Source: Clostridiales bacterium (GTDB lineage: Bacteria > Bacillota > Clostridia > Monoglobales > Firm-18). From it: a DNA stretch of 24,930 nucleotides. The stretch covers positions 1 through 24,930 of the forward strand of contig JAIRSR010000077.1 in NCBI GenBank assembly GCA_031255355.1, read 5' to 3'. Shown in pieces: positions 4,261 through 24,331 of this stretch; positions within the stretch are counted from its first letter, which is position 1; each line of letters starts with the position of its first letter. A model generated the notes under the pieces. That model saw only the letters and a list, made by a program, of their open reading frames with translations, was not told the DNA's origin and did no database searches. A program made the translations under genes and the position numbers.

Positions 4261-7143
4261 CTAAAAATTATACAAAATATACTGTCTGCCGCCGCCGTGC
4301 GCGGGAATCCAAAGGACGCGGCTGGCGTGTTGTTCGCCGTATTGATACATACCCTTAAAATCACTGATGGTCGCGTTGCGCACCTGCGGCTTTGCGCCGA
4401 CCGTAGCGTCATACACGATCGCGCCGCCCATCTGCCAATAATAGTTCGTGTTCATATGCCCCGTTACGTGGATTTTGCGCCGTCCGTCCGCGCCGTACCT
4501 GCCTGTATCGATTACCAAGCCGCTTTGCGAATCCACGTAGTACACAACCCCCGCGTACAGGCTGCGGATACTGCCGCCGTCCGTCAGCGCGTCGAAGTCC
4601 AAATCGGGGAAGGTCTTTGCCGTAATCGGGATATTGTAATAGGTATGCCGCCGATACGATGATACCACATCATTCCCCCGCGTGTAAAGTTGAATCAAAT
4701 CGCCCGCTTCCAAGCCGTCAAACGTGTGTTCGTCCCGCCCGATATACTCTTTCATGACAACGCCCGTCGCCACCTCGACCGCGCCGACCGCCGCGCCGTC
4801 CTTGTCCAATTTTTTGAACACGCGGCTGACCATGACGGGGAACGCGAAGCGCGTGGTGATAATTTCCTGCTCCGCACCGCCCGCGTCGGCGTAAATGAGG
4901 GCAATTTGCGGACGCATATCAAAGCCGCAATCGTAAAGTTCGATGGAATACGGCCGCGCGTTGGCGGGCGCTTGCACGCTGTAATCCTCGTCGTGAAACG
5001 TTTCCGGCGAGGGAACAAAAAAGTATTTGTTCGGCTTGTGATAGCCCGTATCGTCTGCGGCGCGGAGGAGTCTGCCGCTCGTATCCTCCACCAGATTGTA
5101 CTCGTCGATCGGCACACTGCGCTGTAAATGCGCCGACTCCACCAAGCCGTTTTGATTGATTAGATCCTCCGGCAAGCAAGTTTCCAATTCGGCGAGCATA
5201 CCGTCGGCGGTCAGGCGGTAGCGAATCATCTGTGAAATCCCGAACCCGCCGCGCAACATTCCCGCCACGCGCTTCAAAAGGGTCAACGCCTCGTCTTTGC
5301 TAAGGGAATCGCCGTTGACGTTCGTCTTTCGCTCTGTCGTAACAACGATAATCTCACCGTCGTCCGTCATGATTTTCAGTTGCAAAGTATCGGAAAGCGC
5401 ACCCCGCGCGGAGCCGGCGTTGATGAGGTACCCGTACCGCAACGCGTCCGTCGCGCCGCTTTCTTTGAACGCAACGATTTCCCCCGAAAAGTCAAGATAA
5501 AACAACCCTGTTTTCCCCAACGTCAACGCGCCGTCAAGTTCGTTAAAATAATTGCTCGGCGAACTTTTGAACGTCTTGCCGCCGATTTCCACATTCCCCT
5601 CGCCGTCAATCGCTTCTATGGTACCCTCGATTTTCCGCGTAGAAATAACAAACCGCGTGTAAACCGCGTCCCCGGCGGGAAGCAAATGCCCGCGCTGTTC
5701 CTCGTACTTATCGGCAAACGCGCTGAGTACGCAATCGGCGGGAATCCGCGAAACATCTATCGTCTTTGCCGGCTTGCCGTCCTTGCCGAACACGCCGGGA
5801 ACGTCTGCATAATATTCAACCTCCGTGCCGTCGGCGTTGGCGAACTCCAAAATCGTGTCCCCGCTCATACGCGCCGTAATCGGCAAAAGGCTGTACTGCG
5901 GTGTGAGCGTGATTGTATGTCCGCCGTCCGCCGAAGCCCGTTGCAGCAAAAGATTCTCGTAGCGGTTGACGCACACCAAATCGTAAATATCGTCGTCATA
6001 ATTGGAAACCAGCGTAATACTGCCCTGTTGGATTTCCAACGCCGCCCCCAAACTCGGAACCGCCGCCGCCGTGCCGTTGATTAGCACCGTAGGCGCGTCG
6101 CTCAACACCGCCGTCAGTACGCGGCGGCCGTCGTCCTCCGTATAACGAATCGTTTTCGCGGACGGCGTATAGTTCACATAATCCTCCGCGTCGATTTCAA
6201 TTTCCGCGACCTTTCTGTGGTCGATGAGGTAAATCACCGTATACGCGCCGTCGTCATCACGGTAAAAGAACTGTGTCCGATACCCCAAACGCGCCGCGCC
6301 CGCCTTTTGGTCAAGGGCGTATACGTCCTCATCTATTTTCACCGTACCGCGCTTCACCGCGCCGCCCGATAAGCCGCCTGCACGGGTCGCCGTGACAATG
6401 CCGTCCCCCTCGTAAACCTCGTGCCGTTCGGAAAGAAACGTTTCCTCCGTATTCACCGCGTAGGTGTTCCGCTCCCCCGCGCGGTTTTTTTGCAAGGGAT
6501 GGCTTCGTAACATGTTATAGATAAACTCCGCGAACACGCCGCGCGTCATGCCGTCCGCGCTTCGGAACGATACCCCCGCCCGCCGCGCCGCCGCGAAGTA
6601 CCCCTCGGGATAGCCGCCGCTGACCCGCGCGAACTCCTCATACCCCATGACGCGCGTCAACAGCACCACCGCCTCGGTATAGGTAAGCCGCGTGTTGACG
6701 TTGACGGTATTATCCGCGTTGCCTTTCAAAATTCCGTATGCCGCCAACGCCTGCACCGCCGAAAAATACGGCGAATCCCTGTCTACGTCATAAAACGTGC
6801 CGATCGGCGCGTCCGCGAACGCCGCGGTATCGATCCCTGCGGCGGCGGCGGTAATCACACACGCATCCCCTTTTAATACAGGCGCGTCGGGTCGAAATGT
6901 GCCGTCGTCAAAGCCCCGCATAACGCCAAGCGTATCTAAAAACCCCGCGTACAACTTCAACGAACCCTCCCGCGCGTCGGAAAAGGCGGGCGCCTGTTCC
7001 CCCGGGGCAGATTCCACCGCTTCGGCAACGTCGATATTGTCATACTCATGCCCCGCGCCGCTTAAATCGTCCGCGCTTAGCGAAACACAGCGGGTAAGGA
7101 TAATCAGCAGCGCGGCGGCGGTCGCGGTAAAGCGTCTTTTCAT
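4261..7143 (-). CDS. Secreted SLH-domain (S-layer-like) protein, 960 aa (P6)
   Basis: AAAGGAGG RBS; signal peptide MKRRFTATAAALLII...SLSA. N-terminal SLH repeats (LGVMRGFDDGTFRPD; YGILKGNADNT..LTYTE; TRGVFAEFIYNML) at about 6505-6983, then ~740 aa of beta-rich sequence with no recognisable catalytic motif. Confidence 0.85.
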   Translation of the reverse strand: MKRRFTATAAALLIILTRCVSLSADDLSGAGHEYDNIDVAEAVESAPGEQAPAFSDAREGSLKLYAGFLDTLGVMRGFDDGTFRPDAPVLKGDACVITAAAAGIDTAAFADAPIGTFYDVDRDSPYFSAVQALAAYGILKGNADNTVNVNTRLTYTEAVVLLTRVMGYEEFARVSGGYPEGYFAAARRAGVSFRSADGMTRGVFAEFIYNMLRSHPLQKNRAGERNTYAVNTEETFLSERHEVYEGDGIVTATRAGGLSGGAVKRGTVKIDEDVYALDQKAGAARLGYRTQFFYRDDDGAYTVIYLIDHRKVAEIEIDAEDYVNYTPSAKTIRYTEDDGRRVLTAVLSDAPTVLINGTAAAVPSLGAALEIQQGSITLVSNYDDDIYDLVCVNRYENLLLQRASADGGHTITLTPQYSLLPITARMSGDTILEFANADGTEVEYYADVPGVFGKDGKPAKTIDVSRIPADCVLSAFADKYEEQRGHLLPAGDAVYTRFVISTRKIEGTIEAIDGEGNVEIGGKTFKSSPSNYFNELDGALTLGKTGLFYLDFSGEIVAFKESGATDALRYGYLINAGSARGALSDTLQLKIMTDDGEIIVVTTERKTNVNGDSLSKDEALTLLKRVAGMLRGGFGISQMIRYRLTADGMLAELETCLPEDLINQNGLVESAHLQRSVPIDEYNLVEDTSGRLLRAADDTGYHKPNKYFFVPSPETFHDEDYSVQAPANARPYSIELYDCGFDMRPQIALIYADAGGAEQEIITTRFAFPVMVSRVFKKLDKDGAAVGAVEVATGVVMKEYIGRDEHTFDGLEAGDLIQLYTRGNDVVSSYRRHTYYNIPITAKTFPDLDFDALTDGGSIRSLYAGVVYYVDSQSGLVIDTGRYGADGRRKIHVTGHMNTNYYWQMGGAIVYDATVGAKPQVRNATISDFKGMYQYGEQHASRVLWIPAHGGGRQYILYNF

Positions 7144-7181: not shown

Positions 7182-9437
7182 TTAGCGGGCAGCATTGTAT
7201 AGCCGATACAGGATAGACGCGGCTTCGGCGCGTGTCGCCGCCTCATTTGTCCGTGGGTATCCGTTTTCGTACAGCCGCGCGAACAGTCCGTAGGCGATTG
7301 CCGTCAAAACGTCCTCCCGCGCCCACGCGGAAACACCCGATAAATCCTTAATGCCAAGCGCGTCAACCGATAGACCGCCCTGCCGCGCAACACCCCCGCG
7401 CAAACGGTACGCGCGGTTCGCGGCGGCGGCGATTTCCTCCGCCGTCACTTGGTCGTCAGGCGCGAAAACCGCTTCCCGCTTGCCTTTCAAAACGCCCTTG
7501 TAAAAAAGTCCGTCCGCGCCGTCCGCGTACCACGCGCCGTCAGGTACGTCAGTGAAATGCTTCGGATAGCCCCCGCCAAGCCCCAGCACCCGCGCCAGCA
7601 TCACCGCAAATTCCGCGCGTGTCACGGGTTCATAGGGCGCGAACACCGTCGCCGTCTTGCCTTGAATAAAGCCCAAATCGGTCATTTTCGCGATTTCATT
7701 CCGCGCCCAACAGCCGTCTATGTCGGCGAACGCCGTTTCAACGGGCGCGTCCTCCCGTTCGCCGCCCGCCTGCCCGCCCAAGCCCGCGATTTCCGCCGCC
7801 GTTTCAAGGGTCAGCACCGCCAAACTCTTGTTCGGCATATGATAATTCTTGAAATTCGCGGTGTTCCGCTCCGTCGTCACCGCCGTCACAATATCCGCTT
7901 CTTTCGCGCTGTAAATAAAGGATTGCGTGTTCGGCGCGGTGAACACCGTTTCGCTTTTCAGCGTGTAATCATGCTTCAAATCAAAGGCGATATTGAAGTC
8001 AAGGTCTTCCCGCATATTTACCAGAATAATTTTCAAACGGTTCCCGCCCTCCGCCGTCACCAACGCGCTCATTCGGAGGTTGTCGTCCGTTTCGTCCGTC
8101 ACCGGGTCGTCAGAGGTCAAAACGCTCCGCACCACGCGGTCGCCCAGACCGCCGGCATAGACGTGGTACATCTGCCCAACGGGTGATTGGTATAACGTGC
8201 CGCCGACGTACTGCGCCAAGCCCCACCAGCGGCTTTCCTCCCCGCCGTCAAAAAAGGAGTGATACGTCGCGCCGCCCATATCGCCGCGCTTCATCATGAC
8301 GTTAAAGAACTGCGCCGTACTCAGCGCGGAAAATAAATTGATTCTGCCCGCGTCGTCCAAGCCCTCGTCCGCGAAACGCGCGTGTTCCGTCAATAAAAAC
8401 TTCACGCCGTGCCCCGCGCCCAAAACACGCTCCAACGCGTCCGACATATCGTCGAACAAGCCGCTCATGTACGCCGTGGACATGCCGTCATAATAGGGGT
8501 GGAACGCGAGGTAGTCGCAATCCGCGCCAATCGCCCGCGCAACCCCCTCCGTCCATTTGATATGCGATTCCGCTTCGCTCCAAGGCGCGGTTTTGCCGCA
8601 CATGACAAACTTCGCCTCCGGCGCGGCGGCGCGAATCGCCGCGATATGCTTCGGCGCGATTTCAGAGTACCATTCCAACTTCGACTGTGAAAACGCCCAC
8701 ACATTATCCTGTTCCGGCTCGTTCAGCGCGGAGTCGATTTCATTCCCCAACTCAAAAGCGAACACGTTCACCGGCTCCGTCATGCCGTACATGGCGCGGA
8801 GTGCCCCCCACTCGGACTGCCCCGCCTCATGCGTCAAAAACGCGGCGAGGTTGGCGTTGTCCTCCGGCGTGGCGTGTGTGACGGAAATTGTGCATAAATA
8901 CTGACCGTTCGGGTTGATGGACCGCATCAGTTTGACGAACTCCAACGGCCCCATGTTGGTCGCCACGCGTCCCTCACTGCCAAGCGGCGAGACGTCCCGC
9001 GTGTACTTGTTGCCGTCCACCCGCGCACTGCCGGAGCGGGTATTCATTTGCCCGATATTCAAAATCAAATTCGTTTCCTCAATCGCCGCGCCGCCGTACC
9101 GAAACAGCGGAAAGTCAAACACACGCGGCGCGAACGCTTGAAATTCGGGCGCGAAGTCCGTTCCCTCCAGGATATGTCTGTGGCTGCTCTCGTACTGCAC
9201 TCCCAGCATTTCCATCACCGTCGCGTGGAGAGGGTCGTCCTCGTCCACTGTCAAAACAGCGTCCGCCGTCGCGGTTGCGGTCACACTTTCCCGCAATCGC
9301 GCCTGTTCGCTGTCATTCAACGCCGCGTACGCGGGAAGCGAAAGGGTACACGCCGTCAGCAGTAACAGCGCGATACATTTTTCATACCTTCGGTTATACC
9401 TTCGGTTATACCTGCGGTTATACACGCGGTTATACAC
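7182..9437 (-). CDS. Secreted, SLH-anchored clan GH-A glycoside hydrolase, GH51-like and divergent (P5)
   Basis: Likely GTG start at 9437, 8 nt after GGAGG (the ORF track uses 9446). Signal peptide, then W..LR.MYG..EP, FELGNE (acid/base), DYLAFHPYY, LLTEH (candidate nucleophile) and a C-terminal beta-sandwich. Three SLH repeats at about 7190-7730 (TRAE, TAEE, TRAE). Confidence 0.8.
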   Translation of the reverse strand: MYNRVYNRRYNRRYNRRYEKCIALLLLTACTLSLPAYAALNDSEQARLRESVTATATADAVLTVDEDDPLHATVMEMLGVQYESSHRHILEGTDFAPEFQAFAPRVFDFPLFRYGGAAIEETNLILNIGQMNTRSGSARVDGNKYTRDVSPLGSEGRVATNMGPLEFVKLMRSINPNGQYLCTISVTHATPEDNANLAAFLTHEAGQSEWGALRAMYGMTEPVNVFAFELGNEIDSALNEPEQDNVWAFSQSKLEWYSEIAPKHIAAIRAAAPEAKFVMCGKTAPWSEAESHIKWTEGVARAIGADCDYLAFHPYYDGMSTAYMSGLFDDMSDALERVLGAGHGVKFLLTEHARFADEGLDDAGRINLFSALSTAQFFNVMMKRGDMGGATYHSFFDGGEESRWWGLAQYVGGTLYQSPVGQMYHVYAGGLGDRVVRSVLTSDDPVTDETDDNLRMSALVTAEGGNRLKIILVNMREDLDFNIAFDLKHDYTLKSETVFTAPNTQSFIYSAKEADIVTAVTTERNTANFKNYHMPNKSLAVLTLETAAEIAGLGGQAGGEREDAPVETAFADIDGCWARNEIAKMTDLGFIQGKTATVFAPYEPVTRAEFAVMLARVLGLGGGYPKHFTDVPDGAWYADGADGLFYKGVLKGKREAVFAPDDQVTAEEIAAAANRAYRLRGGVARQGGLSVDALGIKDLSGVSAWAREDVLTAIAYGLFARLYENGYPRTNEAATRAEAASILYRLYNAAR

Positions 9438-9440
9438 GCG
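9381..9440 (-). repeat. Five-copy 12-bp imperfect tandem repeat spanning the P4 stop and P5 start
   Basis: Minus-strand units: CGCGTGTATAAC, CGCGTGTATAAC, CGCAGGTATAAC, CGAAGGTATAAC, CGAAGGTATGAA. They encode (R)VYN RVYN RRYN RRYN RRYE in P5. Confidence 0.95.
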
Positions 9441-12210
9441 GCGCACCTCCTTTCAAGCCCGAAAGATAAATCATCTTGGCGGTTTCGGCGCGTGTCGCCG
9501 TTTCGTTCGGCGCGAACGCGCCGTTTCCCCGCCCGGAAACGATCCCCGCGAGTTGCAGTTGCGTCACCGAATCGAACGCCCACTCCGCAATATCGCCGTA
9601 ATCACTGAACCATGCCGTTGTTTCGGTAATCGGCAAGGAAAGCCCCTTGTTCCCCAACGCGCGTACCACAAGAACGGCAATCTCCTGCCGCGTGATTTCA
9701 CGCTCGGGGTGAAAACGGTTCGCGCCGTCGCCGTAGACGATTCCCGCTTCCACACCCGCCTTGACGTAGCCGTAATACCACGCCGCAACGGAAACGTCCT
9801 CAAATAGCAGCGGTTCGGATTCCCGTTCTGTTTCCGGCGCACCCTCGCCGAACGCGGTCAGAACGATTTTCAAAAATTCCGCGCGGGTAATCGCGCCGTC
9901 GGGACGGAACAAGCCGTCCTCATAGCCGCCCACCGCGCCAAGCGCGGTCAGATAGCGGGTCGCCTCGTAACTCCAATGGTCGATCGGGACATCATTGTAA
10001 AGCAGTGTTTTGCCCACCGCCGTACCGTCTGACGGCACAACCGGCGCGGGGGGCGGGGGGTCTAAGGTAAAGCCGCCTCCCCCTCCTCCGCCGCCGCCTT
10101 TTCCTCCTGTGGAGGACGGCTTGACCGGGGGTGTTTCCGGCGTGAAGCCGTCAATAAAGTCCTTGAGATCCTCTATGGTTTGCAGGGTATCCTTTTGTTG
10201 CAGCAACCCTGTATAAAACGCGCGGTTGCCGGCGGTATCCAAGTGTAAGGCGGAAAGCCGCGCCGCGTCATACCCGATCACGCCGCTGAAATCCGTCGTG
10301 ATTTGCCGCATATACTGATAGGTGTCACAGATGCCGAACGCGGTCAGCAGCAACGCCTCATCAAAGCGTTTCGCCACGTCCGCAACGTTTTTGAACTGAA
10401 CGTTTGTCAAACGCGACAGCACCGCCGCTTCCCGCCCGTCATAGTACTGCCCGCCCAGCGTCAAGCCGAACACGGCGTTATGTTCCCGCAACGCCGCCAG
10501 CACCTCCTCCGGCGCGGATAAGCCGTTCAAGCCGCCGACCGCGATTTCGTCCGCGAGGACGCGCTCCAAATACCGCAAATCCTCAAGCCCCGCGCAGGAG
10601 AACGCGGGATAGGTAGCAACACGCTCCAAATAATCCGCGTAAGCGGCGGGGTTCGTCTGTTTCAACGCCGCCGCCGGGGATGCGTCGATTATATCGATCC
10701 GTTGCAGGCTCAAATCGCCGCTTCCCGTGATGATTCCGTCCATCGCGGCAAAATCCTTGGCGGCGACGGCGGCGTTGAGCGCGTCGGTAATCAGCCGCTT
10801 TTGCGCGAAATACCGCGCCGTTTCGCCGCGTTCCGCCGCGTAGGTGTACTCACTGACGACCCGCGCCTTAACCGTAAGCGTTTCCGCGCCGCGTGACGCG
10901 GTAATTTGCGTATCGCCCTCACGGATTCCGTACAACGCGCCGCCGCGCATTTCCGCGACGTCCGGTCGCCGTACGCTCCACGCTATGCCTGTTTCGAGCG
11001 CACCGCCGATTCGCGCCCGCAACGCCAACGGATTCCGCAAAAACGCGATAATTTCCCCCGCCGGCGCGGACGCGCCCGAACGCTCCTTGCCGTACACGTG
11101 GATAAAATCCACTTGCAGGTGGTCGTCGTTCACGGACGAACGGTTTACGCCGAGTTGCAGCAGCATATCGTCCGTGCCGCGCCGCATCAGCCCGCCCGCG
11201 TCAGTCAACGTCAATACCGCGCTCATGGCGGCGTTTCCGCTGTTGCGCACGTCCGCTTTTACGGTGTTTTCCGCCCTGTCCAGCGTGATTTCCATATCAT
11301 ACCAAGCGGTATAGGCAAAATTATCATTGCCGTTGACATAATCCACCGTTGCGCCGTCCACTACCTTGCGGATATACGGACGGTAGGACATCGGCTGCGG
11401 GAACAGCGTATCGCCGTTCCCGAGGATTCCCGCCTCGTAATACGTCCTCTCGTCCTCGCTGACGCAAAAACGCACCGACGCGCGAACACCGTTATACCGC
11501 GCGAATTTCATCGTAACGCGGCTGAGGTCGCGCTCTGACGCGGCGGGGACGTGCAAATTCACAAAGCCGTCATGCGTTCCGCTCTGTTCCGCGACTTGCA
11601 TGGTCGCGTCCGTGCGAATGTACAGCATCACACCTCTGTGCGGGTTGTTGATGTAGCCGACCGATACATCAGAACGCTGCCAATAGCCCTCGCCGTTCGC
11701 CGCGACTACCGTACCGCCGTCCCCGGGTAAATCGTCCCCGCGTACCGCGTTCGCCCTGTCGTAGCGGGAATTCGCGGCATTGTACGTCGTGAACGCGTCA
11801 CTGAACACACGCGTTTCGGCGGCGGAAGCGGTGTTCTCGTACCGCGCGTCTATCCGCGTAAAGACCGAAACCGCCGCCGCGTCCACCTCTTGCGGGAACA
11901 CAATGCCGGAATACGCCGCGTCCGCGTCTTGGTTCAAAAACAGCCCGCCCGCGTCAAAAAAAGCGGAAACTGTTTGCGGCTCCGCGCCCGTAAACTCCAG
12001 CGTTACGGTACGCCCCGCCAACGGCGGGTAAGCAACCAAAGCGACTGCCGTTGGCGTTTCAAAGGTAACGGTGCTTCCCACGGCAAAAACAGCGGTTTCT
12101 TGATACATAGCGGAATTTTCCGCCGACGCGTACGCCCCGCCGTGAGCGGCGCATAGGGCAAGCGCGGCAAACAACGCCAAAATCCTGCTTTTTTGTATCT
12201 TTAACATCAT
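9430..12210 (-). CDS. Secreted multidomain SLH protein, 926 aa, no recognisable catalytic motif; candidate scaffold or glycan binder (P4)
   Basis: GGAGG RBS and signal peptide. Domains: ~240-aa beta-rich domain shared with P1 (11089-11808); Ig-like domain (IAWSVRRPDVAEM..GDTQITAS); alpha-helical repeat region (about 10147-10812); Pro/Gly linker (TPETPPVKP..GGKGGGGGGGG..PPPP); three canonical SLH repeats (TRAE, TRQE, TRAE). Confidence 0.85.
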   Translation of the reverse strand: MMLKIQKSRILALFAALALCAAHGGAYASAENSAMYQETAVFAVGSTVTFETPTAVALVAYPPLAGRTVTLEFTGAEPQTVSAFFDAGGLFLNQDADAAYSGIVFPQEVDAAAVSVFTRIDARYENTASAAETRVFSDAFTTYNAANSRYDRANAVRGDDLPGDGGTVVAANGEGYWQRSDVSVGYINNPHRGVMLYIRTDATMQVAEQSGTHDGFVNLHVPAASERDLSRVTMKFARYNGVRASVRFCVSEDERTYYEAGILGNGDTLFPQPMSYRPYIRKVVDGATVDYVNGNDNFAYTAWYDMEITLDRAENTVKADVRNSGNAAMSAVLTLTDAGGLMRRGTDDMLLQLGVNRSSVNDDHLQVDFIHVYGKERSGASAPAGEIIAFLRNPLALRARIGGALETGIAWSVRRPDVAEMRGGALYGIREGDTQITASRGAETLTVKARVVSEYTYAAERGETARYFAQKRLITDALNAAVAAKDFAAMDGIITGSGDLSLQRIDIIDASPAAALKQTNPAAYADYLERVATYPAFSCAGLEDLRYLERVLADEIAVGGLNGLSAPEEVLAALREHNAVFGLTLGGQYYDGREAAVLSRLTNVQFKNVADVAKRFDEALLLTAFGICDTYQYMRQITTDFSGVIGYDAARLSALHLDTAGNRAFYTGLLQQKDTLQTIEDLKDFIDGFTPETPPVKPSSTGGKGGGGGGGGGFTLDPPPPAPVVPSDGTAVGKTLLYNDVPIDHWSYEATRYLTALGAVGGYEDGLFRPDGAITRAEFLKIVLTAFGEGAPETERESEPLLFEDVSVAAWYYGYVKAGVEAGIVYGDGANRFHPEREITRQEIAVLVVRALGNKGLSLPITETTAWFSDYGDIAEWAFDSVTQLQLAGIVSGRGNGAFAPNETATRAETAKMIYLSGLKGGAPRV

Positions 12211-13364
12211 CGCGATTCCTCCGTTTCCGCGTTTCGGGGTAACAGCCCTGTGAAGAAACGCGCGGCATTTGTAAATACAAACGTCTTGACTTCCGGCGCG
12301 TTTACGTAAAAGGGTACGGTGACTTTCGGGGTCGAAACGGTCAGAGTACTCCCGGGCGCAACGCTTGCCGTCCCCGTGTACAGGCGCGATAGCCGCCCGC
12401 CGTCCGACAACGCCGCCGCCAAAAGGATTTCCGCCGCAGTATCGGTGTGATTCGTAACGTCTACGGAGTAAACGCCGTCCCGCTCGACCGCCGTGGAAAT
12501 ATCAATCCCGCCGTAGGGACGGAACGTAACGCCGAACGTACAACGCGCACCGAAAAAGTCCGCTTCCAGCGTAACCGTGCCGACAGACGCGCCGAGGTAG
12601 ACCAAATTGCCGTCCTCGATCCGTCCGTCACCCGCCGTCACGCGGTAACGCACCAAATCCGCCGCCTCAATCACTTCCCTCACGCCGTCCGAATCGATCC
12701 CCACGGGACGCGCCGCGCCAAGCGGCATAACGGCGCCGCGCCAATCCCCGCCCTTTATGTCAAGGCCGACGGGTGCTGAATGAATGGATAAATCGTCAAT
12801 ATAAATTTTATCATAAGTGTTATCCGACGCGCTCTGACGATTGATGTTAATCATGAAATCGACAAAATTATGCGCGTCATACCGCGCGAACGGAAACGAA
12901 CCGTACACCTTGTACCAGCCCCCGCCCGCCGCTTCCGCGCGAAAGGAAGCGTCCGCCGCCGCGTCGCCGCCCGAACCGCCGCGCATGACCACCAACGGCG
13001 CGACGCGGTCAGACATTCCTCCGTACACACCCTTGATATAGTACGAAAAGTATAACGCCCTACGGCGAATCGTATCGGTAATCACGCCGGACGGCACCGA
13101 ATAGGACAGCGCGGAAAGTCCCGTGCCGCTCCTGTAACTGATTTCCAGGGAACGCTTGCCGCTGTAACGCTCCGCTTCGGTATGCGCGGCGGCAAAGCCC
13201 GCGTCGTTGTGAAAATAATAATTATGGGTGCGGTCACTTTCCATATTCGCGGCGCCGTATTGACTGACGACCGCGCCGTACAGCCTGCGCTCATACGCCG
13301 CCCCCGCGCGGGGAAACAGCAAAATCACCACGGCAAGCGCGGTAAAAACGCGCGTTCGTGTCAC
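12207..13364 (-). CDS. Secreted non-catalytic protein: CBM4/9-like beta-sandwich, Ig-like domain and shared C-terminal domain (P3)
   Basis: Likely GTG start at 13364, 8 nt after AAGGAG (the ORF track uses 13373). Signal peptide ending RAGA-AY. CBM-like pattern YSGKRSLEI..FSYYIKG..GWYKV..IYIDDLSI. No SLH. Confidence 0.75.
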   Translation of the reverse strand: MTRTRVFTALAVVILLFPRAGAAYERRLYGAVVSQYGAANMESDRTHNYYFHNDAGFAAAHTEAERYSGKRSLEISYRSGTGLSALSYSVPSGVITDTIRRRALYFSYYIKGVYGGMSDRVAPLVVMRGGSGGDAAADASFRAEAAGGGWYKVYGSFPFARYDAHNFVDFMININRQSASDNTYDKIYIDDLSIHSAPVGLDIKGGDWRGAVMPLGAARPVGIDSDGVREVIEAADLVRYRVTAGDGRIEDGNLVYLGASVGTVTLEADFFGARCTFGVTFRPYGGIDISTAVERDGVYSVDVTNHTDTAAEILLAAALSDGGRLSRLYTGTASVAPGSTLTVSTPKVTVPFYVNAPEVKTFVFTNAARFFTGLLPRNAETEESR

Positions 13365-13369
13365 GCCGA

Positions 13370-15973
13370 TCACTCCTTTATTAAATATACGTCGGTCAGC
13401 GGACGGAGGGAATTGTCCTCCAAGATCAACGCCCGCGCCAACGCCGCGCCGATTACCGTCGGCGTTCGTACCAAGGGGGAAATTTCCCCGCCCGCCGCAA
13501 CGCCCTCCGCTTCACTTACCGCAACGGCGGTGAGGTTGCCCGCGCCGTCATAAAACGCCAAATACACTTGTACGGAAGCAATCGCCGCGTCCCCGAGGTT
13601 TTGTAAGCCGATAGCCGCCGTCCGCTCCTCCGTCAGCATCCCTAAGGTCAGCCGCGCCCCGTCCTCCGTCCGCAAAGGCGCAATCACGCGCACGGCTTCC
13701 CCCGGTTTGACAAAATCAAGTTCCGTTTCAAACACATCATGCTCCGTTGTGATGCGCAAACGGTACGCGCCCGATACCGCGTCACGCGGGAAAAGCAGTT
13801 CATACCGCTGTGCCGCGCCGAATTTGGTTCCCGCCCCGGCGTAGCGGAGTTCTCCGTCAGCCGCGCTTGTCAGCGTCACGCCAAAGCGTTCGCCGTCCCG
13901 CGTCCGCGCGTCGTTCCAATAGATATGGAACGCCGTTTCATAATCGCCGTTCGGTTGCGAGAGCGGTTCCAACCGCGTCACCGCGCCGCTCGCCCGATAG
14001 TCCAGCCGCACCGTCTTTTGCGCCGCGCCCGCGCCGACGCGCAGGAAATATTCGCCGTTCGGCAACCCGGGCGGCAGCAACGCCTCAAAATAGCCCCTGT
14101 TCCGCGCGATTCCGTCCGCTTGCGCCATGTAAATCACGCCGTCCGGCGTAAGTTCGGGCGATGCGGGATCGGACGCGAACAATACGGCGGTCAGTTCTGA
14201 AACGCCGTTTAACGCGCCGTTTTCAAACAGGGAAAATTCCACCCGCACCCGCTCCGCCGTCACAACCGGCGCGGTATAGGTATCGGCGGGTACGCCGTTC
14301 ACCCGCAGGGAAACCGCGTCATTCGCGGTGTATTGCCGCTCCGTCGGCACAAGGTAATATGCCGTGATGGTCTTTGCGCCGATTGTCTGTGCGGGAACGT
14401 CCGCCGCGTGGATTCGCTCTGCCTTTGCGACCATCGCGTCAGGCGCGGTAATGTCGGTCAGCGGGCCGTTATCCGAGGCGTCGCTTGCTGCGGTGAGGGT
14501 CACGCGTTTTTCCAGTTTATAGTTGTTTTGCGTGGAAAAATCCAACGTATGCGCGGCGTTGGAGGCGTTTACGGCAAGGAGGTTCAACCCGCCCTCCGCT
14601 GTCGTATGCGCCGATACCGTCAAGGTATGCGCCGTGGTTCTCATGTTGTCGCCCGTGACCCGCACCGAATCCACCCCGAACGCGTCAGACGCTAATTTGA
14701 AAAACTCACCCACGCCGGAAAGCGCGAAGCCGAAATCGGGGAACGCCCGCATCAAGCCCCACACCCCGCCGCCGAACGCGTCAGCCGCCGAGGGATAGTC
14801 CATTGTCGTGTGATACACCGCAATCGGCGCGTCAGGGGACTTAATCAAGCGGTTCACCATGTCCGCCGTGGATAGCGTCCCCGCGCGGCCTGTCGCGATG
14901 GTGCGCGAGGCGGTGTTGTAATGTTCCACCCCGCCGAACACCGCGTGTTCCGACAAAAACGGCGCGGGCATCTTTTCTGCGGGAAGTCCGTCCGTACAAA
15001 TGCCGTATCCGTCCCATGTCCAACGGCTGTCCGCATTGAAATACCGATACATACTGCCTGTGTTGTGATAATAGCAATGCACAACGATATAATCCAGCCT
15101 GTCGCTCAATTCCTTTAACAGCAGGTTGATTTTCGTGTTAAACACCGAATATTTTGTTTGGGACTCATGCGGCGTAGTGCAGGACTGCACCGCCAGCGGC
15201 ACGTTCGGGTTGACTTCCCGCAATGCGGGGACGATCGCGCGGCACCACGCGGCGTACATGTCCCCCGCTTCGCCGTAAATCCGATCGTAAATCGCCTGTT
15301 TCTGCGCCGAAGTCCGCGCCGCCGCGAGTTCCGCCCGCACCGCGTCCGTTTCCAATATTTGATTGAAATAAAACCAATCCGTTTCGTTGCCCAACTCTAA
15401 CGCCGCCAAGTTGACCGGCTCCGCAATGCCCGCCTCTACGCGGCGGGAAGCCCAGTTCACGCCGTCCGCGCCAATCGCGGCGGGGTCGCTCGGCATCAAA
15501 GTCAAAAACCGTACCAAATCACGCAAATTGTCCAAATCGTCCTCCACCCGAATGGTAAAGGCAAAGGCGGCGTTCGGCGTGAGGTTCGCGCGGGCGCGAA
15601 TCCATTCCGCAAGCCCGAATGTGTACACCTGCGAAAAATCGTTCACCCCGCGCGATTCCAACGCGCCGACGGTTTCTTTCCAATTAAGGGTGTGCAAAAA
15701 GGCGCGGGCAATCGGGAAGCCGACGCCTGTTTTTTGAAACGCCTCCGCGAAGTCGTTTCGTACCGCCGCGGACGAACCGTTTGCCGCAGAGCCGAAAAAG
15801 CCTATATCGTCATTCAAACCCAGTACCCTTCGGTCTGACGGACGAAGCGCGGCGTTTTCCTCTACCGTAATCGTATATGCCGCCGAAGCCGCGCGGGGAA
15901 GCGAAACGCAAGCGATACTCGCGGCAATCAACGCTACGGCGGTGCGCCGCGCGGTGTGGTTCACCCTCCTCAT
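13370..15973 (-). CDS. Secreted clan GH-A glycoside hydrolase, GH51-like and divergent, with two Ig-like domains and the shared C-terminal domain; no SLH (P2)
   Basis: AAAGGAGGT RBS and signal peptide. Motifs W..RR..AG..EP, LELGNE, DYIVVHCYY, FLSEH. Paralogue of P5. Confidence 0.8.
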   Translation of the reverse strand: MRRVNHTARRTAVALIAASIACVSLPRAASAAYTITVEENAALRPSDRRVLGLNDDIGFFGSAANGSSAAVRNDFAEAFQKTGVGFPIARAFLHTLNWKETVGALESRGVNDFSQVYTFGLAEWIRARANLTPNAAFAFTIRVEDDLDNLRDLVRFLTLMPSDPAAIGADGVNWASRRVEAGIAEPVNLAALELGNETDWFYFNQILETDAVRAELAAARTSAQKQAIYDRIYGEAGDMYAAWCRAIVPALREVNPNVPLAVQSCTTPHESQTKYSVFNTKINLLLKELSDRLDYIVVHCYYHNTGSMYRYFNADSRWTWDGYGICTDGLPAEKMPAPFLSEHAVFGGVEHYNTASRTIATGRAGTLSTADMVNRLIKSPDAPIAVYHTTMDYPSAADAFGGGVWGLMRAFPDFGFALSGVGEFFKLASDAFGVDSVRVTGDNMRTTAHTLTVSAHTTAEGGLNLLAVNASNAAHTLDFSTQNNYKLEKRVTLTAASDASDNGPLTDITAPDAMVAKAERIHAADVPAQTIGAKTITAYYLVPTERQYTANDAVSLRVNGVPADTYTAPVVTAERVRVEFSLFENGALNGVSELTAVLFASDPASPELTPDGVIYMAQADGIARNRGYFEALLPPGLPNGEYFLRVGAGAAQKTVRLDYRASGAVTRLEPLSQPNGDYETAFHIYWNDARTRDGERFGVTLTSAADGELRYAGAGTKFGAAQRYELLFPRDAVSGAYRLRITTEHDVFETELDFVKPGEAVRVIAPLRTEDGARLTLGMLTEERTAAIGLQNLGDAAIASVQVYLAFYDGAGNLTAVAVSEAEGVAAGGEISPLVRTPTVIGAALARALILEDNSLRPLTDVYLIKE

Positions 15974-16003: not shown

Positions 16004-17887
16004 TTAATCAAGATTGATTGTGGGGCATAAGGGCGAGAGCAGAGCAAAGCCGTCCTCCGCCCAAAGGAATAGCCTGTGCGCACTGCCGACCTCCTCCGAA
16101 AGATTCAGCGTAACCGGCGCGGCAATACTTTCCGCCGGAACCTTTTCAAAATCGAAGCCAATCAGCCTGTTGCCGCTGTAACTTGCGGCAAGCACGGTAA
16201 TATATTCCGTAACCTTGGACGCGTAAGCGGCGGGGATGCTCACCGTAACCGTGCCGCCGTCCACTTCCCAATGCAACCGCCCCGCTACGCCGGAAACACT
16301 GACGGCAGCAAACTGATTGAAGTCGTTTTCGTTTGCGGATTTTGAGCCGGCTTGGAAAATAACGTCATCCGTCCCACGGTTCAAAAACGCGCCGTCGTCC
16401 GTCAAGGTAACGCTCCACGCGTTGTTCCCCGCGTCATATTCCTGCTCCTTGCTTCCTCTGAACGTAATCCCGCCGGAAGCCGCGTCTATCGTAATCACCG
16501 CGTTCATCCAAGAGGTTCCCCCCGCCGTGGCGGAGGTTGCCGCCGCGTAAGCCGTCTGTATGCCGTTGACCACTTTGCGGAGGTACGGACGCGCCCCGCC
16601 GCTCTCGTGAATGCCCGCCTCGTAAAAACTTTGCTCATCACTGCTCACGTTAAAGCGCATGACCGTCTGTACACCGTTGTACTTCGCGAATACAACGGCG
16701 ATTTTCGTCACGTCATACGCCGCCGCGCCGGGGGAATGCAGGTTAATCAAACCGTACTCTATATCACTTTGCCCGGAAATATTAAGCGATCCGTTGATAA
16801 ACGCGCGAACGCCGTCGTAACCGCCGGCAACGTACCCCTTGAACACGTTGGAACGTTTCCAATAACCGTTGACGTTCGGCCGGGCGTCGCCCACCACCGT
16901 CGCGCCGCCGGAATCCGCCGTCGTGCCGCGCACCGCCGTCCCCGCCGTCGTTTTCGCGTTGTTCGCGTTGTATGCGGAGAAATCATCATAGAAGATATTG
17001 ACCTCTCTGTTCGGCGTGCCGTAAATATCCACATAATCTACCGAAACCCGGTTATTTTCATTGCGGGGACGAAGCCACGCGCCGCCGATTTGGAACACCA
17101 TATTGCCTATGCCTCTTTCGAGGAATTCCCCCTGTTCCGTGTATACACCGCTGTACAGCACTGTGTTATCGTTGCCGTTTTTCAGGGTATATGAAATTGT
17201 TTTCGCGTCCTTGTCAATGTCCACTTCAGAGATAAACCATGAAGTACCGCCGTGTGTTTGCGTATCCGCTGCCACAAGTTCCGTCCCATGTCCGTTTACC
17301 ACCTTGCGGATATAGGCGTAGCCCGTTTTGCCGCTGCCCGCTATCGTTTCCTCATTTGCTCTCAATCCGCTAAGCCCTACCTCGTAAAAGGACTTCTCAT
17401 CCGCGCTGACGTTAAACCGCTGGATTGCCCGCGCGTCGTTATACCGCGCGTATCTTACCTCAAACTTCGTCAAACTGTAATCCACGGCGCGGTCGGAGTA
17501 CAAATTCACCATAGACTGTTCCCATGTGCTGTGTCCCGCAATTTCAAGGGTGTCATCGCCCTCGATAAACGTTTGTATGCCATACGCGCCGATGTCCGTG
17601 TTAATCCACCCCGTACCCGTTTCGCTTACGTTAGAACGCTTCCAATAGCCGCCCAACGCCGCGCGGTCGTCCGCTACCACCGTCGCGCCGCCGGAATCCG
17701 CCGTCACGCCGCGCACCGCGTTTGCCTCGCCCCTTTTGGCGTTGGCGTCGGTGTAGGTATCAAACTCGTCATGGAATATGAGCGCACCCTCAGCCGAAGC
17801 GGTAACCGGCGCGATTCCCGCCAACATACCGCACAGCAGCGCGAACGCCGCCAAAACCGAAATCCCTCTTTTGATGACCTTTAACAT
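16004..17887 (-). CDS. Secreted protein with two tandem copies of an unrecognised ~240-aa beta-rich domain and the shared C-terminal domain; no SLH (P1)
   Basis: AAGGGGG RBS; signal peptide ending ASA-E. Internal duplication 17018-17779 versus 16289-16996. Confidence 0.85.
   Translation of the reverse strand: MLKVIKRGISVLAAFALLCGMLAGIAPVTASAEGALIFHDEFDTYTDANAKRGEANAVRGVTADSGGATVVADDRAALGGYWKRSNVSETGTGWINTDIGAYGIQTFIEGDDTLEIAGHSTWEQSMVNLYSDRAVDYSLTKFEVRYARYNDARAIQRFNVSADEKSFYEVGLSGLRANEETIAGSGKTGYAYIRKVVNGHGTELVAADTQTHGGTSWFISEVDIDKDAKTISYTLKNGNDNTVLYSGVYTEQGEFLERGIGNMVFQIGGAWLRPRNENNRVSVDYVDIYGTPNREVNIFYDDFSAYNANNAKTTAGTAVRGTTADSGGATVVGDARPNVNGYWKRSNVFKGYVAGGYDGVRAFINGSLNISGQSDIEYGLINLHSPGAAAYDVTKIAVVFAKYNGVQTVMRFNVSSDEQSFYEAGIHESGGARPYLRKVVNGIQTAYAAATSATAGGTSWMNAVITIDAASGGITFRGSKEQEYDAGNNAWSVTLTDDGAFLNRGTDDVIFQAGSKSANENDFNQFAAVSVSGVAGRLHWEVDGGTVTVSIPAAYASKVTEYITVLAASYSGNRLIGFDFEKVPAESIAAPVTLNLSEEVGSAHRLFLWAEDGFALLSPLCPTINLD
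16289..17779 (-). repeat. Intragenic tandem domain duplication in P1 (third copy in P4 at 11089-11808)
   Basis: Both copies share IF.D.F..Y..NAK, AVRG.TADSGGATVV, GYWKRSNV, A.YN, RFNVS.DE.SFYE.G, Y.RKVVNG, GGTSW and RG...FQ.G. Confidence 0.9.
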
Positions 17888-17923: not shown

Positions 17924-18775
17924 TCACTCTTTCACCGCACCCGCCGCCAAGCCGGATACGAAGTACTTGCCGGCACAGGCATACGCCGCCACCACGGGAA
18001 TCAGCGCGATTGCGGAACCCGCCAGCATGAGGTTCCACGACGAAGCCGCGCCGCCTCCGCTTTTCAACGCCATCAGCCCTACAATCAGCGTCTGCTGTTT
18101 TGGATTTGTCATGGTAAAAATCGTCGGCATGATGTAATCGTTCCAACTCCACTGAAATGTCAAAATCGCCACCGTCGCTAAAATAGGCTTCAGCATAGGC
18201 AGAATCACGCGGCAATAGATGCCGAAAAAGTCACAGCCGTCGATTTTCGCCGCCTCGTCCACCGCACGCGGAATCGTGGACACATAGCCGCGCACCAGGT
18301 ACACGTTCACAATCGGCACGCCGAACACGTTCAGCAAAATCAGCGCGGGAAGCGAACGGTCCAGCCGCAGAAGCCCCAGCACTTGAAACGTGGCGTAAAT
18401 CCCGATATTCCCCACCTTGATGAACATCAGCGATATAAAACAGCCGAAAATCAGCCGCTTGAAAGGGAACCGCCCCCGCGCGAACACGTACCCGCCCATA
18501 GAAGCCGTCACCACCGCGATCAGCACGTTTGCCAAGGTGTAATACAGGCTGTTCAGCCCCATAAGCCCCGCGTTAAAAGCGGGGTCCGTCCACACGGTGA
18601 CGTAATTTTCCAGCGTGGGCGCGGCGGGGAACACCCGCGCCGGCTCCGCCATAATCTCCATGTTGGTCTTAAAGGACGACGCGACCGTGTACACCAACGG
18701 AAACGCGGTAATGACAAAGATCACGCCCAAAAACAAGTAAATGAAAATATTTTCAATGAGCAAGCGTTTTTTCAT
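17924..18775 (-). CDS. Carbohydrate ABC transporter permease (CUT1, MalG-like)
   Basis: Multiple transmembrane segments; EAA loop VDEAAKIDG; WSWNDY motif. Confidence 0.95.
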   Translation of the reverse strand: MKKRLLIENIFIYLFLGVIFVITAFPLVYTVASSFKTNMEIMAEPARVFPAAPTLENYVTVWTDPAFNAGLMGLNSLYYTLANVLIAVVTASMGGYVFARGRFPFKRLIFGCFISLMFIKVGNIGIYATFQVLGLLRLDRSLPALILLNVFGVPIVNVYLVRGYVSTIPRAVDEAAKIDGCDFFGIYCRVILPMLKPILATVAILTFQWSWNDYIMPTIFTMTNPKQQTLIVGLMALKSGGGAASSWNLMLAGSAIALIPVVAAYACAGKYFVSGLAAGAVKE

Positions 18776-18810
18776 CAGGCGATCCCCCTTAGACCGAAGT
18801 CGAATATTCC

Positions 18811-19755
18811 TTATACTGACGGCATTTTTTTGCTTACCTTGTCATAGGCGAGGGCGACTACCGCGAAAATCACCGTCGTAACGACGGACATCGCGCAGCC
18901 GTACCCCAAGCGCGGCTTCGCCCCCGCCGCCATAAAGCCCGGCACGAATTGACGCGTCAGATACGCCATGACGGAAAGTGTCTGCCCGCCCGGTGCGCCG
19001 TTGGTGGAAGTGAGGATAAACTCATTCACCCCCAGCGTCCCCACCAACGACAGCAATAAGATGATTTGCAGCACCGGCGCGATCATCGGCACCGTTATTT
19101 TGCGGAACGCCGTAAAGCCTGACGCGCCGTCCAACCGCGCGGATTCGTAAATATCCTCTGAAATCCCCGCGAGCGCCGCCATAAAATACATGACGTTGAT
19201 TCCGAAAGTGCTCCACACGCCGCCCGTGACCAACACGGCGAACGCCGTCCCCCTCCCGGCGAACCAATCAACGCCCTCACGCACCGCGCCGATTTTTAAC
19301 AGCGTACCGTTCACCCAGCCGAAGTACCCGAACATATTGGTAAAAATCAAGCCGACTACCGCCACACTGATAATGTTAGGCAGATAGAACACCGCGCGGA
19401 AGAAGTGCGACCCGCGCAGCCGCCTGTTCAGCATCAGCGCAAGAATCATGGCAAGGCATAATTCTATAGGGATTTTCAACGCCGCGTACAAAAGCGTATT
19501 CGCCCAGGTACGCCAATACGTCAGGTCTACGGTGAACATACTGATGAAGTTTTGCAAACCGATAAAGCGCGTGTTCGCGGCAATGCCGTCATAGGCGTAA
19601 AACGCCCAGCGAAACGTCCAGATGATAGGGTATACCGATAATACCAAAAACCCGATAATCTGTGTGCCGATCATGAGGAAGCACTGCAACGCCTCTTTGT
19701 GTTTCTCGCGTTGGATCGAGGCGGGCGACCCTCCCTGCCTTGTTGTATTTTTCAA
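18811..19755 (-). CDS. Carbohydrate ABC transporter permease (CUT1, MalF-like)
   Basis: TTG start with AGGGGG RBS; FIGLQNF motif; EAA loop IYESARLDGAS. Confidence 0.95.
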   Translation of the reverse strand: MKNTTRQGGSPASIQREKHKEALQCFLMIGTQIIGFLVLSVYPIIWTFRWAFYAYDGIAANTRFIGLQNFISMFTVDLTYWRTWANTLLYAALKIPIELCLAMILALMLNRRLRGSHFFRAVFYLPNIISVAVVGLIFTNMFGYFGWVNGTLLKIGAVREGVDWFAGRGTAFAVLVTGGVWSTFGINVMYFMAALAGISEDIYESARLDGASGFTAFRKITVPMIAPVLQIILLLSLVGTLGVNEFILTSTNGAPGGQTLSVMAYLTRQFVPGFMAAGAKPRLGYGCAMSVVTTVIFAVVALAYDKVSKKMPSV

Positions 19756-19784
19756 CGATTTGTCCCCCCTAAGAGCCTTTCACA

Positions 19785-21167
19785 TTACCGCACGGGGTTC
19801 CAACCGGGAATGTCCCGCGCTTTTGGGTCGCGATCCGGGTGCGTCGCGTAATACCGCTGTTTCGCGTCGTTTTTTAAGTCGGTATACTTCACTAACGCGT
19901 CCTTGACCGGCGTTTTGCCCGTCCACACTTCCGAAAGGAAGTATTCGTAAAATTCGGGCTGTCCCCCCAATACAGAGGAAATATTCGGCTCCCACGAGGT
20001 GCGGACGCTAATCTCCGTCAACGCGCAAAACTCTTTCCAGCCCTTTGGCGCACCGTCCAAAGATACGTCCTTGACCGTTTGCCAATTGTAAGGGATTTCC
20101 ACCCCCGCTTGGTAAGTGGAAGTAACAAAATCGTCGCTTGTGAAAAATTTAAGCACTTCCATGATTACATCGCCGCCCGCATCGGAAAGTGCCTTGCGCG
20201 TGACGTAAAACGTAGAGCCGAACTCCATACGCTGTAAGTATTTTTCCGCGCCGTCTACCGTGGGATACGGCGCGACGCCCCAATCAAACTGCGCGGGGAA
20301 CTGGTCGTTGTACACGCCTACGTCAAAGGAATACGCCATTTTCATTCCGATTTTCCCAAGCGCGAACTGTGCCCGCGCGGGGTCGTTATCCAAGCCCTCC
20401 GCGCCGGGGTAGATGCTGCCGTCCTCTTTCATGCCCAAATACGCGCTCATAATCGGCTCTAACGGCGTGTAATCATAAATTCCGGTACCGGGATTGTACC
20501 CCTCGTGCCCCGCGCTGCTCAGCAGCGGGTGCAGAAATTCGCTCCCGAAAAACCCGCCCCATTTCAGCGGCAAAATAAAGCCGTACTCCCGCTTGTCCGG
20601 GTTGGTCAGCCGTTTCGCGTATTCGCGGAGTTCCGCGTAACTTTTCGGCGGCGTAGGCTCGCCGTTCGCGTCCACGATTCCCGCCGCGCGGAACATTTCC
20701 TTGTTATACACCATGCCCTGTGTCGCCGCGCCGTAGGGCAGGGAATAGTACTTGTCGCCGATATAATTCCGCTCTACCCGCGCTTCGTCCTTGTACTTGT
20801 CAATCAGCGCGTTGCCGCCCGGCAACTCATTATACGGCGCGATGAAGTCCGATTCCACCATTTTTTCCACGTCAACGCCCGCGATAAATAAATCCGGCGC
20901 TTGCCCGCTTTGCAGCGCGAGTTCGATCTGTTGGGTCAGCGCGCTGCCCTCCTTTACGACGTAATCTATCATGACGCCCTTTTTCGCGCCCGCATCCTGG
21001 TTCCACGCGTTAATCAGCCTGTCATAAATCGCTTTGCTGCCGGTGCTGTCCGACCAAATGACGACCTTTTTTACCCCGCCGTCCGTCTGTCCTCCCCCGC
21101 AGCCCGCAAGCAAGCCTGTGAGCGCGGTCAAGATGAGTGCCGCCGCCAACTTTCGCTTACCAATCAT
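19785..21167 (-). CDS. Carbohydrate ABC transporter substrate-binding lipoprotein (SBP family 1)
   Basis: GGGAGG RBS; lipobox LLAG-C23; typical SBP1 segments SGQAPDLF, YSLPY, MVYNKEMF, DWGVAPYP. Confidence 0.95.
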   Translation of the reverse strand: MIGKRKLAAALILTALTGLLAGCGGGQTDGGVKKVVIWSDSTGSKAIYDRLINAWNQDAGAKKGVMIDYVVKEGSALTQQIELALQSGQAPDLFIAGVDVEKMVESDFIAPYNELPGGNALIDKYKDEARVERNYIGDKYYSLPYGAATQGMVYNKEMFRAAGIVDANGEPTPPKSYAELREYAKRLTNPDKREYGFILPLKWGGFFGSEFLHPLLSSAGHEGYNPGTGIYDYTPLEPIMSAYLGMKEDGSIYPGAEGLDNDPARAQFALGKIGMKMAYSFDVGVYNDQFPAQFDWGVAPYPTVDGAEKYLQRMEFGSTFYVTRKALSDAGGDVIMEVLKFFTSDDFVTSTYQAGVEIPYNWQTVKDVSLDGAPKGWKEFCALTEISVRTSWEPNISSVLGGQPEFYEYFLSEVWTGKTPVKDALVKYTDLKNDAKQRYYATHPDRDPKARDIPGWNPVR

Positions 21168-23275: not shown

Positions 23276-23325
23276 AAAAACACTCCTCCCTGTTTTGATT
23301 GATTTTTTGGATGGATTTTAATATC

Positions 23326-23354
23326 ATTATCGCAAAAAATCACAAAACAGACAA
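23326..23354 (-). promoter_or_regulatory. Candidate sigmaA promoter for the oxidoreductase pair
   Basis: TTGTCT (23354-23349), 17 bp, GATAAT (23331-23326), with extended TG-N. Confidence 0.6.
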
Positions 23355-23368
23355 GAGCGGTATGTGTT

Positions 23369-24256: not shown

Positions 24257-24301
24257 ACATACTCCCCCATGTTTATAATTCAGACGGGCTCTGATAAAAA
24301 A

Positions 24302-24331
24302 ATTATACCGCATTGAAATCGATTTTGTCAA
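24302..24331 (-). promoter_or_regulatory. Consensus sigmaA promoter for the araC-like gene
   Basis: TTGACA (24331-24326), 18 bp, TATAAT (24307-24302). Confidence 0.8.

Follow-up and report, generated by a model that had tools for sequence, protein, structure and literature searches.

Family 51 of the glycoside hydrolases (GH51) is regarded as a well-understood family of arabinofuranosidases. Its solved bacterial members, taken here as those of Thermotoga maritima/petrophila (3UG3/3S2C), Geobacillus (AbfA, 1PZ3) and C. thermocellum (Araf51, 2C7F), are cytoplasmic hexamers built from chains of ~500 aa. More distant sequences, designated GH51_dist, are also kept within GH51 by CAZy, and one of them, WP_084555785.1 of Alkaliflexus, acts on lichenan (Helbert et al. 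2019, PMC6442616). The present analysis concerns a stretch of 24,930 nucleotides from a Clostridiales bacterium (GenBank assembly GCA_031255355.1, contig JAIRSR010000077.1, positions 1 to 24,930 of the forward strand), hereafter called the window, which encodes two GH51-like proteins, P0001 and P0002 (P5 and P2, respectively, in a preliminary description made from the sequence alone). They are probably a divergent, uncharacterised GH51 subfamily pair rather than a new family, and are predicted to be catalytically competent retaining glycosidases of clan GH-A. The source genome is a metagenome-assembled genome (MAG) of 1.37 Mb with 55% completeness, and the DNA of the window is also present in a termite-gut metagenome run. 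The two proteins and their parts are located as follows.

7182..9446, minus strand: P0001, 754 aa as listed, with signal peptide, GH51-like barrel plus beta-sandwich, and three SLH repeats
7803..9275, minus strand: P0001 catalytic (beta/alpha)8 barrel and C-terminal beta-sandwich, residues ~58-548
8739..8741, minus strand: P0001 Glu236, predicted acid/base, in ELGNE just past beta-4; aligns with GH51 Glu175, invariant (n=81)
8385..8387, minus strand: P0001 Glu354, predicted nucleophile, in LTEH at the end of beta-7; aligns with GH51 Glu294, invariant
7185..7730, minus strand: P0001 SLH triplet, cell-wall anchor, residues 573-754 (PF00395, E 6.6e-21, three stretches)
13370..15973, minus strand: P0002, 867 aa, with signal peptide, GH51-like barrel plus beta-sandwich, and a C-terminal region of ~300 aa
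14339..15892, minus strand: P0002 catalytic barrel and beta-sandwich, residues 28-545 (superfamily profile match 14339-15889)
15383..15385, minus strand: P0002 Glu197, predicted acid/base, in ELGNE
14948..14950, minus strand: P0002 Glu342, predicted nucleophile, in LSEH
13373..14296, minus strand: P0002 C-terminal region, residues 560-867

The two proteins are 25% identical over 412 columns (BLASTP, E 1e-13), and alignments of their respective families match with E 1.4e-63 over 461 columns (hhalign), a similarity far above chance. The preliminary description had called them divergent paralogues, one anchored and one free, which agrees with these scores and, at the domain level, with the three SLH repeats of P0001 and the lack of any in a domain scan of P0002. 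All the shared motifs quoted there were found again in the translations, namely WGALRAMYGMTEPVN, ELGNE, DYLAFHPYY, LTEH, LST, YH...WWGL and TAEGGNRLKIILVN in P0001, and WASRRVEAGIAEPVN, ELGNE, DYIVVHCYY, LSEH, LST, YH...VWGL and TAEGGLNLLAVN in P0002. Both N-termini are signal-peptide-like.

AlphaFold2 (AF2) models of P0001 (residues 40-570; pLDDT 88.3, pTM 0.90) and P0002 (residues 28-560; pLDDT 90.6, pTM 0.92) support a clan GH-A barrel followed by a beta-sandwich, as had been proposed. In Foldseek searches of the PDB, AFDB clusters and Swiss-Prot, GH51 always came first (TM-score (TM) 0.65-0.78, 13-18% identity) and GH79 second, and the best matches of each protein were GH51 (TM 0.71-0.78 for P0001 and 0.65-0.75 for P0002). 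The alignments span ~480-500 residues of the GH51 chains, C-terminal domain included; both proteins thus have the two domains that define GH51, a barrel and a C-terminal 12-stranded jelly-roll. The clan GH-A arrangement, with an acid/base Glu after beta-4 and a nucleophile Glu at the end of beta-7, is also present in both. In the P0001 model, strand segment 189-194 is followed by G-N-E at 195-197, and TEH stands at the end of strand 310-317; in the P0002 model, G-N-E at 168-170 follows strand segment 162-167, and SEH stands at the end of strand 310-318. Compared with the solved GH51 enzymes, the pair has the same barrel and jelly-roll, the same N-terminal strand joining the jelly-roll, the same GNE acid/base and beta-7 Glu nucleophile, and equivalents of Arg69, His244 and Tyr246. 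However, identity to them is as low as given above. The proteins have changed or lost EHLG, RYPGGN, DEW and AQLVN, and they are secreted and carry an SLH anchor or a long C-terminal extension, unlike the ~500-aa solved forms.

Profile searches likewise put GH51 first. Against GH51 structures, the P0001-family profile scored E 6e-26 and the P0002-family profile E 1.6e-13, while a profile of 81 sequences representing both families and their relatives (the superfamily; alignment A4) matched the Thermotoga GH51 almost from end to end (E 4e-43; profile 6-478 of 491, chain 3-473 of 484). A hidden Markov model (HMM) of canonical GH51, built from 12 genes of related genomes that each scored >100 bits on PF06964, recognised P0001 near full-length (E 2e-19; HMM 64-486 of 489, residues 112-548) and P0002 in fragments (E 1e-12), and matched 138 of 146 superfamily representatives with a median of 76 bits. 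With a single sequence as query, P0001 found GH51 arabinofuranosidases among solved structures, weakly and over half the barrel (E 6.5e-8). GH79 beta-glucuronidases and heparanases (3VNY, 5BWI) share the clan GH-A barrel and beta-sandwich, but an assignment to GH79 was rejected, as it always ranked behind GH51 (TM 0.57-0.70) and its match to the superfamily profile was much weaker and partial (E 2e-7 to 4e-6; profile positions 170-427). Assignments to GH39, GH30 and GH44 were rejected as well, their matches being weaker or partial; some superfamily members scored 12-18 bits, below threshold, on the Pfam models of GH39, GH30, GH44 and GH5, to which P0001 and P0002 gave no match.

In a maximum-likelihood (ML) tree, P0001 and P0002 belong to different deep clades, the P1 clade (support 97*) and the P2 clade (support 98*), and the superfamily as a whole is monophyletic (support 99*). 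In the 151 genomes of the order that were searched, canonical GH51 scores no higher than 130 bits on the A4 profile, whereas superfamily members reach 245 bits or more; ten of the genomes hold full-length members. Relatives were searched with A4, which is free of SLH sequence, as an SLH-bearing alignment drew mostly SLH matches. An exhaustive search with the P0002-family HMM yielded, for representatives at 50% identity, 215 with E<=1e-30, 430 with E<=1e-10 and 1045 with E<=1e-3, mostly as full-length matches. The named genomes with relatives are MAGs of Clostridia, Victivallales/Lentisphaeria, Planctomycetota, Spirochaetes and Opitutaceae. A word-indexed search with A4 returned four proteins, none informatively named, and no member of the clade that has been characterised turned up in literature searches on GH51-like or GH51-related enzymes or on GH51 in connection with Victivallis, Lentisphaerae or SLH.

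The pair is an old one, co-inherited within a conserved multi-gene cassette, which goes beyond the preliminary description. With P1-, P2-, P3-, P4- and P6-like denoting relatives of P0001, P0002, P0003, P0004 and P0006, BLASTP synteny and gene tables define two blocks: a P3-like SLH protein, the P1-like SLH-bearing GH and a P6-like SLH protein in the first, and the P2-like free GH with a P4-like protein in the second. Both blocks occur together in at least six loci, namely the window and the following.

Contig C14 of genome G034: collinear with the window, two permeases included
LVAX01000107: Clostridiales bacterium Firm_18
JGI metagenome 3300027796: two contigs
ERZ16299678: ENA contig

In the syntenic loci, the P3-like gene is always upstream and the P6-like gene always downstream of the anchored GH, and the P4-like gene comes next after the free GH in five of the six loci, and one gene further on in the other. 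Two other genomes (G016 and G002) have, in place of the free partner, proteins of 1300-1800 aa bearing the same GH domain. A recent local duplication was considered for the pair and rejected, since the two proteins belong to distinct deep clades and each of them has its own orthologues in the syntenic loci. The conservation of pair and cassette gives the finding better support than the sequence alone had offered.

The source MAG holds four copies in total, two in the window and one on each of two further contigs (C254 and C46). The latter are P1-like and 43-46% identical to P0001, and both lie on short contigs that break off in or close to the genes; the C254 paralogue lies directly behind a P3-like SLH protein. 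A striking local expansion is seen on contig C9 of G002 (~20.9-54.4 kb), with a tandem array of at least eight proteins of ~1070-1370 aa, each with an N-terminal P1-like GH51-like domain. Two ABC permeases immediately precede the array, and a P3-P1-P6 block follows it.

The nine signature residues of GH51 (PMC4666033) were mapped onto the pair through an L-INS-i alignment of 108 sequences, with the following result.

Glu29: E86 in P0001, D56 in P0002
Arg69: R116 in P0001, R90 in P0002
Asn74: A121 in P0001, F92 in P0002; lost in both
Asn174: N235 in P0001, N196 in P0002
Glu175 (acid/base): E236 in P0001, E197 in P0002
His244: H316 in P0001, H299 in P0002
Tyr246: Y318 in P0001, Y301 in P0002
Glu294 (nucleophile): E354 in P0001, E342 in P0002
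Gln351: S397 in P0001, T389 in P0002; lost in both

P0001 thus keeps seven of the nine residues, and P0002 six together with a Glu29-to-Asp exchange, so that neither has the full set. Across the 81 superfamily sequences, the Arg, both Glu, the His and the Tyr never vary, and Asn174 hardly does. Because the catalytic centre is conserved to this degree, catalysis is predicted to follow the standard retaining mechanism, and the earlier assignment of GNE as acid/base and (T/S)EH as nucleophile agrees with their alignment to Glu175 and Glu294. The departures from GH51 noted in the preliminary description are real in the 108-sequence alignment. EHLG is replaced by MLGVQYE in P0001 and VLGLNDD in P0002; RYPGGN becomes RYGGAA in P0001, and its loop is deleted in P0002 and the P2 clade (AR---AFL); DEW becomes TEH and SEH, respectively. 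A conserved His of the YH motif immediately precedes the Gln351 position. P0002 further carries a helical insertion directly after the acid/base, ~30 residues longer in the alignment than that of its nearest homologues. Taken together, the lost residues, the change from Trp to His behind the nucleophile, the deleted loop and the insertion make an altered glycone or subsite specificity plausible, though they do not identify it.

The placement within GH51 as a subfamily follows from the full-length profile matches, from the tree stems, from a comparison of scores between subtypes and from the practice of CAZy with GH51_dist. The superfamily matches canonical ~500-aa GH51 with E 9e-40 over 461 columns, a similarity at least as strong as that between the two accepted GH51 subtypes of ~500 aa and ~660 aa (E 3.9e-25), although hhalign E-values vary with alignment depth and the ~660-aa alignment is shallow, with four close sequences. 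The stem between the superfamily and canonical GH51 is no longer than those among canonical subclades. Of the earlier suggestion of a new GH family or subfamily, the second half is therefore retained, while the full-length matches (E 4e-43 and 9e-40) speak against the first. Neither protein was assigned with a high score to an existing GH51 clade of ordinary alpha-L-arabinofuranosidase activity; both fall into separate, uncharacterised deep clades, and no Pfam GH51 threshold was reached.

Several observations weigh against this placement, as does the shallow alignment just mentioned, and some of them favour the reading that the clade is a new family of clan GH-A whose glycone is not L-arabinofuranose. 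A search with P0002 as single sequence gave nothing significant against solved GH51. Significant similarity to characterised members along the entire catalytic module, which CAZy asks of a family, is thus seen with profiles but not with single sequences. Pfam gave no match to the trimmed catalytic regions of P0001 and P0002 even at E<=10, the thresholds of its GH51 models were not reached in the ten superfamily members scanned, and NCBIfam ArfA matched partially and far under its cut-off. The Trp after the nucleophile is replaced by His, and the lost Asn74 and Gln351 positions contact the sugar in GH51. Identity to solved and AFDB GH51 is just 13-18%, the superfamily is monophyletic with a clear score gap to canonical GH51 (245 versus 130 bits), and NCBI labels its members "hypothetical protein". 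The Asn74 and Gln351 positions also vary among the 12 canonical GH51s, of which five have the Asn and seven the Gln. IMG labels superfamily members "alpha-L-arabinofuranosidase". Relatives peak at 19.5 bits on PF22848 (ASD1_dom; cut-off 22.2), for which precomputed matches are nevertheless recorded in many members, and one relative only just passes the cut-off of PF06964 (Alpha-L-AF_C; 28.2 versus 27 bits). Given these Pfam matches in relatives, the full-length profile matches, the subtype comparison, the comparable tree stems and the retention of GH51_dist in GH51 (PMC6442616), a separate family appears unlikely.

The assignment to a GH51 subfamily leaves room for different activities. The pair could be endo-acting glycanases, for example beta-glucanases (lichenases) or xylanases, rather than exo-furanosidases. 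GH51 includes endoglucanases and a bifunctional arabinofuranosidase (Abf)/endo-xylanase (PMC4666033), and endo activity exists among distant GH51s, as seen from the lichenan-active member; GH51_dist and the present pair are both distant relatives of GH51, and a non-Abf specificity occurs at such a distance (PMC6442616). Moreover, an extracellular location sets both proteins apart from most canonical bacterial Abfs. The loss of the R-Y-P-G-G-N loop in the P2 clade could change the -1 pocket, and in P0002 this loss, combined with the long insertion after the acid/base, could open it. These points speak for endo action and against exo-furanosidases, for which the glycone is itself a guess. However, the residue equivalent to Glu29, which caps the pocket round the terminal furanose in GH51 structures, is retained in 11 of 12 P1-clade members, and the partner cytoplasmic enzymes are of galactosidase types or GH31 rather than beta-glucosidases or xylosidases. 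Endo-acting glycanases are a live but improbable alternative. That one or both are non-catalytic, carbohydrate-binding pseudoenzymes tethering substrate at the surface, as their extreme divergence and the several non-enzymatic binding-type proteins of the cassette might suggest, is rejected as very improbable, since both Glu, and with them the Arg, Asn, His and Tyr of the catalytic centre, show little or no variation in 81 diverse sequences, a sign of selection on catalysis.

The pair is encoded in a tightly packed minus-strand operon, in which genes overlap by 4-17 nt or are separated by gaps of at most 38 nt. Its order from 5' to 3' is substrate-binding protein (SBP), two permeases, P0005, P0002, P0004, P0003, P0001, P0006 and GH36, and the remaining features are located as follows.

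21215-21188: best promoter-like site, just upstream of the SBP gene
17924..21167, minus strand: ABC sugar importer (SBP and two permeases), head of the operon
19785-21167, minus strand: SBP
18811-19755 and 17924-18775, minus strand: permeases
16004..17887, minus strand: P0005, 627 aa, secreted, with two repeats of a beta-rich domain
12207..13373, minus strand: P0004, 388 aa, secreted, cassette partner
9430..12210, minus strand: P0003, 926 aa, C-terminal SLH, cassette partner
4261..7143, minus strand: P0006, 960 aa, N-terminal SLH, cassette partner
2057..4237, minus strand: GH36 alpha-galactosidase (Melibiase, E 1.4e-140), no SLH, last glycosidase of the operon

The P0002 gene is preceded by AAAGGAGG, located 9 nt upstream of its ATG at 15973. 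For P0001, GGAGG is found at 9450-9446, and the GTG at 9437, 8 nt after this site, is more likely to be the start than the GTG at 9446 that is listed. A 12-bp tandem repeat of ~4.3 copies (9384-9441) covers the stop of P0003 and the start of P0001, where it codes for an unusual basic N-region, YNRVYNRRYNRRYNRRYEK. In the public gene call the start lies 42 residues further on, so that the signal peptide is lost. Near 9383, an out-of-frame ATG and a run of five A are present, and one extra A would yield MKKCIALLLL.

The C-terminal ~300 residues of P0002 gave no significant domain match, merely weak, sub-threshold Ig-like hints (DUF4469, E 0.027; FxLYD, 20.7 bits versus a cut-off of 23). A homologue (P0044) has an MG2 match, and the last ~90 aa of P0002 weakly resemble the C-termini of P0004 and P0005 in alignment. 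In P0003, P0004, P0005 and P0006, no Pfam family besides SLH was found; all four accompany the two GHs as conserved partners of the cassette in at least six loci. The beta-rich domain repeated in P0005 also occurs in the N-terminus of P0003, and an Atlas feature search suggests, as a lead only, that it is ConA/LamG-like. For P0006, no relative was recognisable by fold or family, its cassette orthologues aside.

The cytoplasmic enzymes that flank the cassette differ from locus to locus: GH36 in the window, GH42 in G034, GH31 with a glycyl-radical enzyme in Firm_18, and GH39 with a heparinase-like protein in G016. GH36 is indeed adjacent to the pair, as the preliminary description had pointed out, but because of this variation it is a weak clue to the alpha-galactosyl-decorated substrates that were proposed from it. 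A galactose-containing substrate is nevertheless a reasonable guess, because the P3-like partner in one locus bears F5/8 type C domains. A glycyl-radical enzyme (PFL-like) adjoins the cassette in two loci, with a radical-SAM activase beside it in Firm_18 (L030, 14631-17521), while in the other (L050, 1-234) its end alone is present at the locus edge. The operon of the window is flanked (160-2044 and 22205-24331) by genes for a xylose-isomerase-like TIM barrel protein, a Zn-dependent dehydrogenase, a GFO/IDH/MocA oxidoreductase and an AraC regulator. Enzyme sets of this type are known from oxidative (3-keto) sugar pathways. At the end of the window (24422-24928, plus strand), an open-ended reading frame has a weak, sub-threshold match to the BclA C-terminal domain (E 0.0075).

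The data show homology, fold, retained catalytic residues, clade structure and synteny, and from them we infer an exo-furanosidase activity, a substrate and a division of labour for the two enzymes. They would act at the cell surface on one decorated heteropolysaccharide, P0001 being tethered to the wall by its SLH repeats and P0002 being either free or docked via its C-terminal region. Each may strip a different glycosyl decoration or linkage, most probably furanosyl, with alpha-L-Araf as default and beta-D-Galf or an Araf-based disaccharide as alternatives. The products would be imported through the ABC transporter, and cytoplasmic enzymes would complete the breakdown (the GH36 alpha-galactosidase here; GH42, GH31 or GH39 in relatives). 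An analogue is a GAfase of bifidobacteria, which reportedly frees an alpha-galactosyl-arabinose disaccharide; after import, an intracellular galactosidase cleaves this product. The analogy, which is speculative, is drawn because of the adjacent GH36. It is functional only: the GAfase is likewise an extracellular clan GH-A enzyme and acts on arabinogalactan-protein side chains, but it belongs to a different family, GH39 (PMC10688797), and has no homology to the pair beyond the clan.

It is conceivable, though doubtful, that each clade holds a specificity new to GH51, such as a disaccharide-releasing glycosyl-arabinofuranosidase or a beta-D-galactofuranosidase, and that the two enzymes supply the catalysis in a conserved surface complex that is SLH-anchored and cohesin-free. 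This complex would comprise about six proteins, with four of unknown fold at its core, and would be devoted to one heteropolysaccharide in gut and digester Clostridia. If this were true, the pair would stand for a new GH51 subfamily, possibly a family, and for a new type of glycan-harvesting apparatus in Gram-positive bacteria. The branch is not small, with at least 215 clusters at 50% identity (E<=1e-30), and it is easily missed or mis-assigned in metagenome surveys of carbohydrate-active enzymes because it is invisible to Pfam and labelled "hypothetical protein" by NCBI. If the two proteins are plain arabinofuranosidases, the gain would be better annotation. The pair is a good target for enzyme discovery, even if not surprising in kind. 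The conserved anchored and free enzymes, the four surface proteins and the ABC importer make up a concrete, testable operon, which could reveal both a new specificity and the way in which SLH-bearing gut Clostridia harvest a complex glycan without the parts of a cellulosome.

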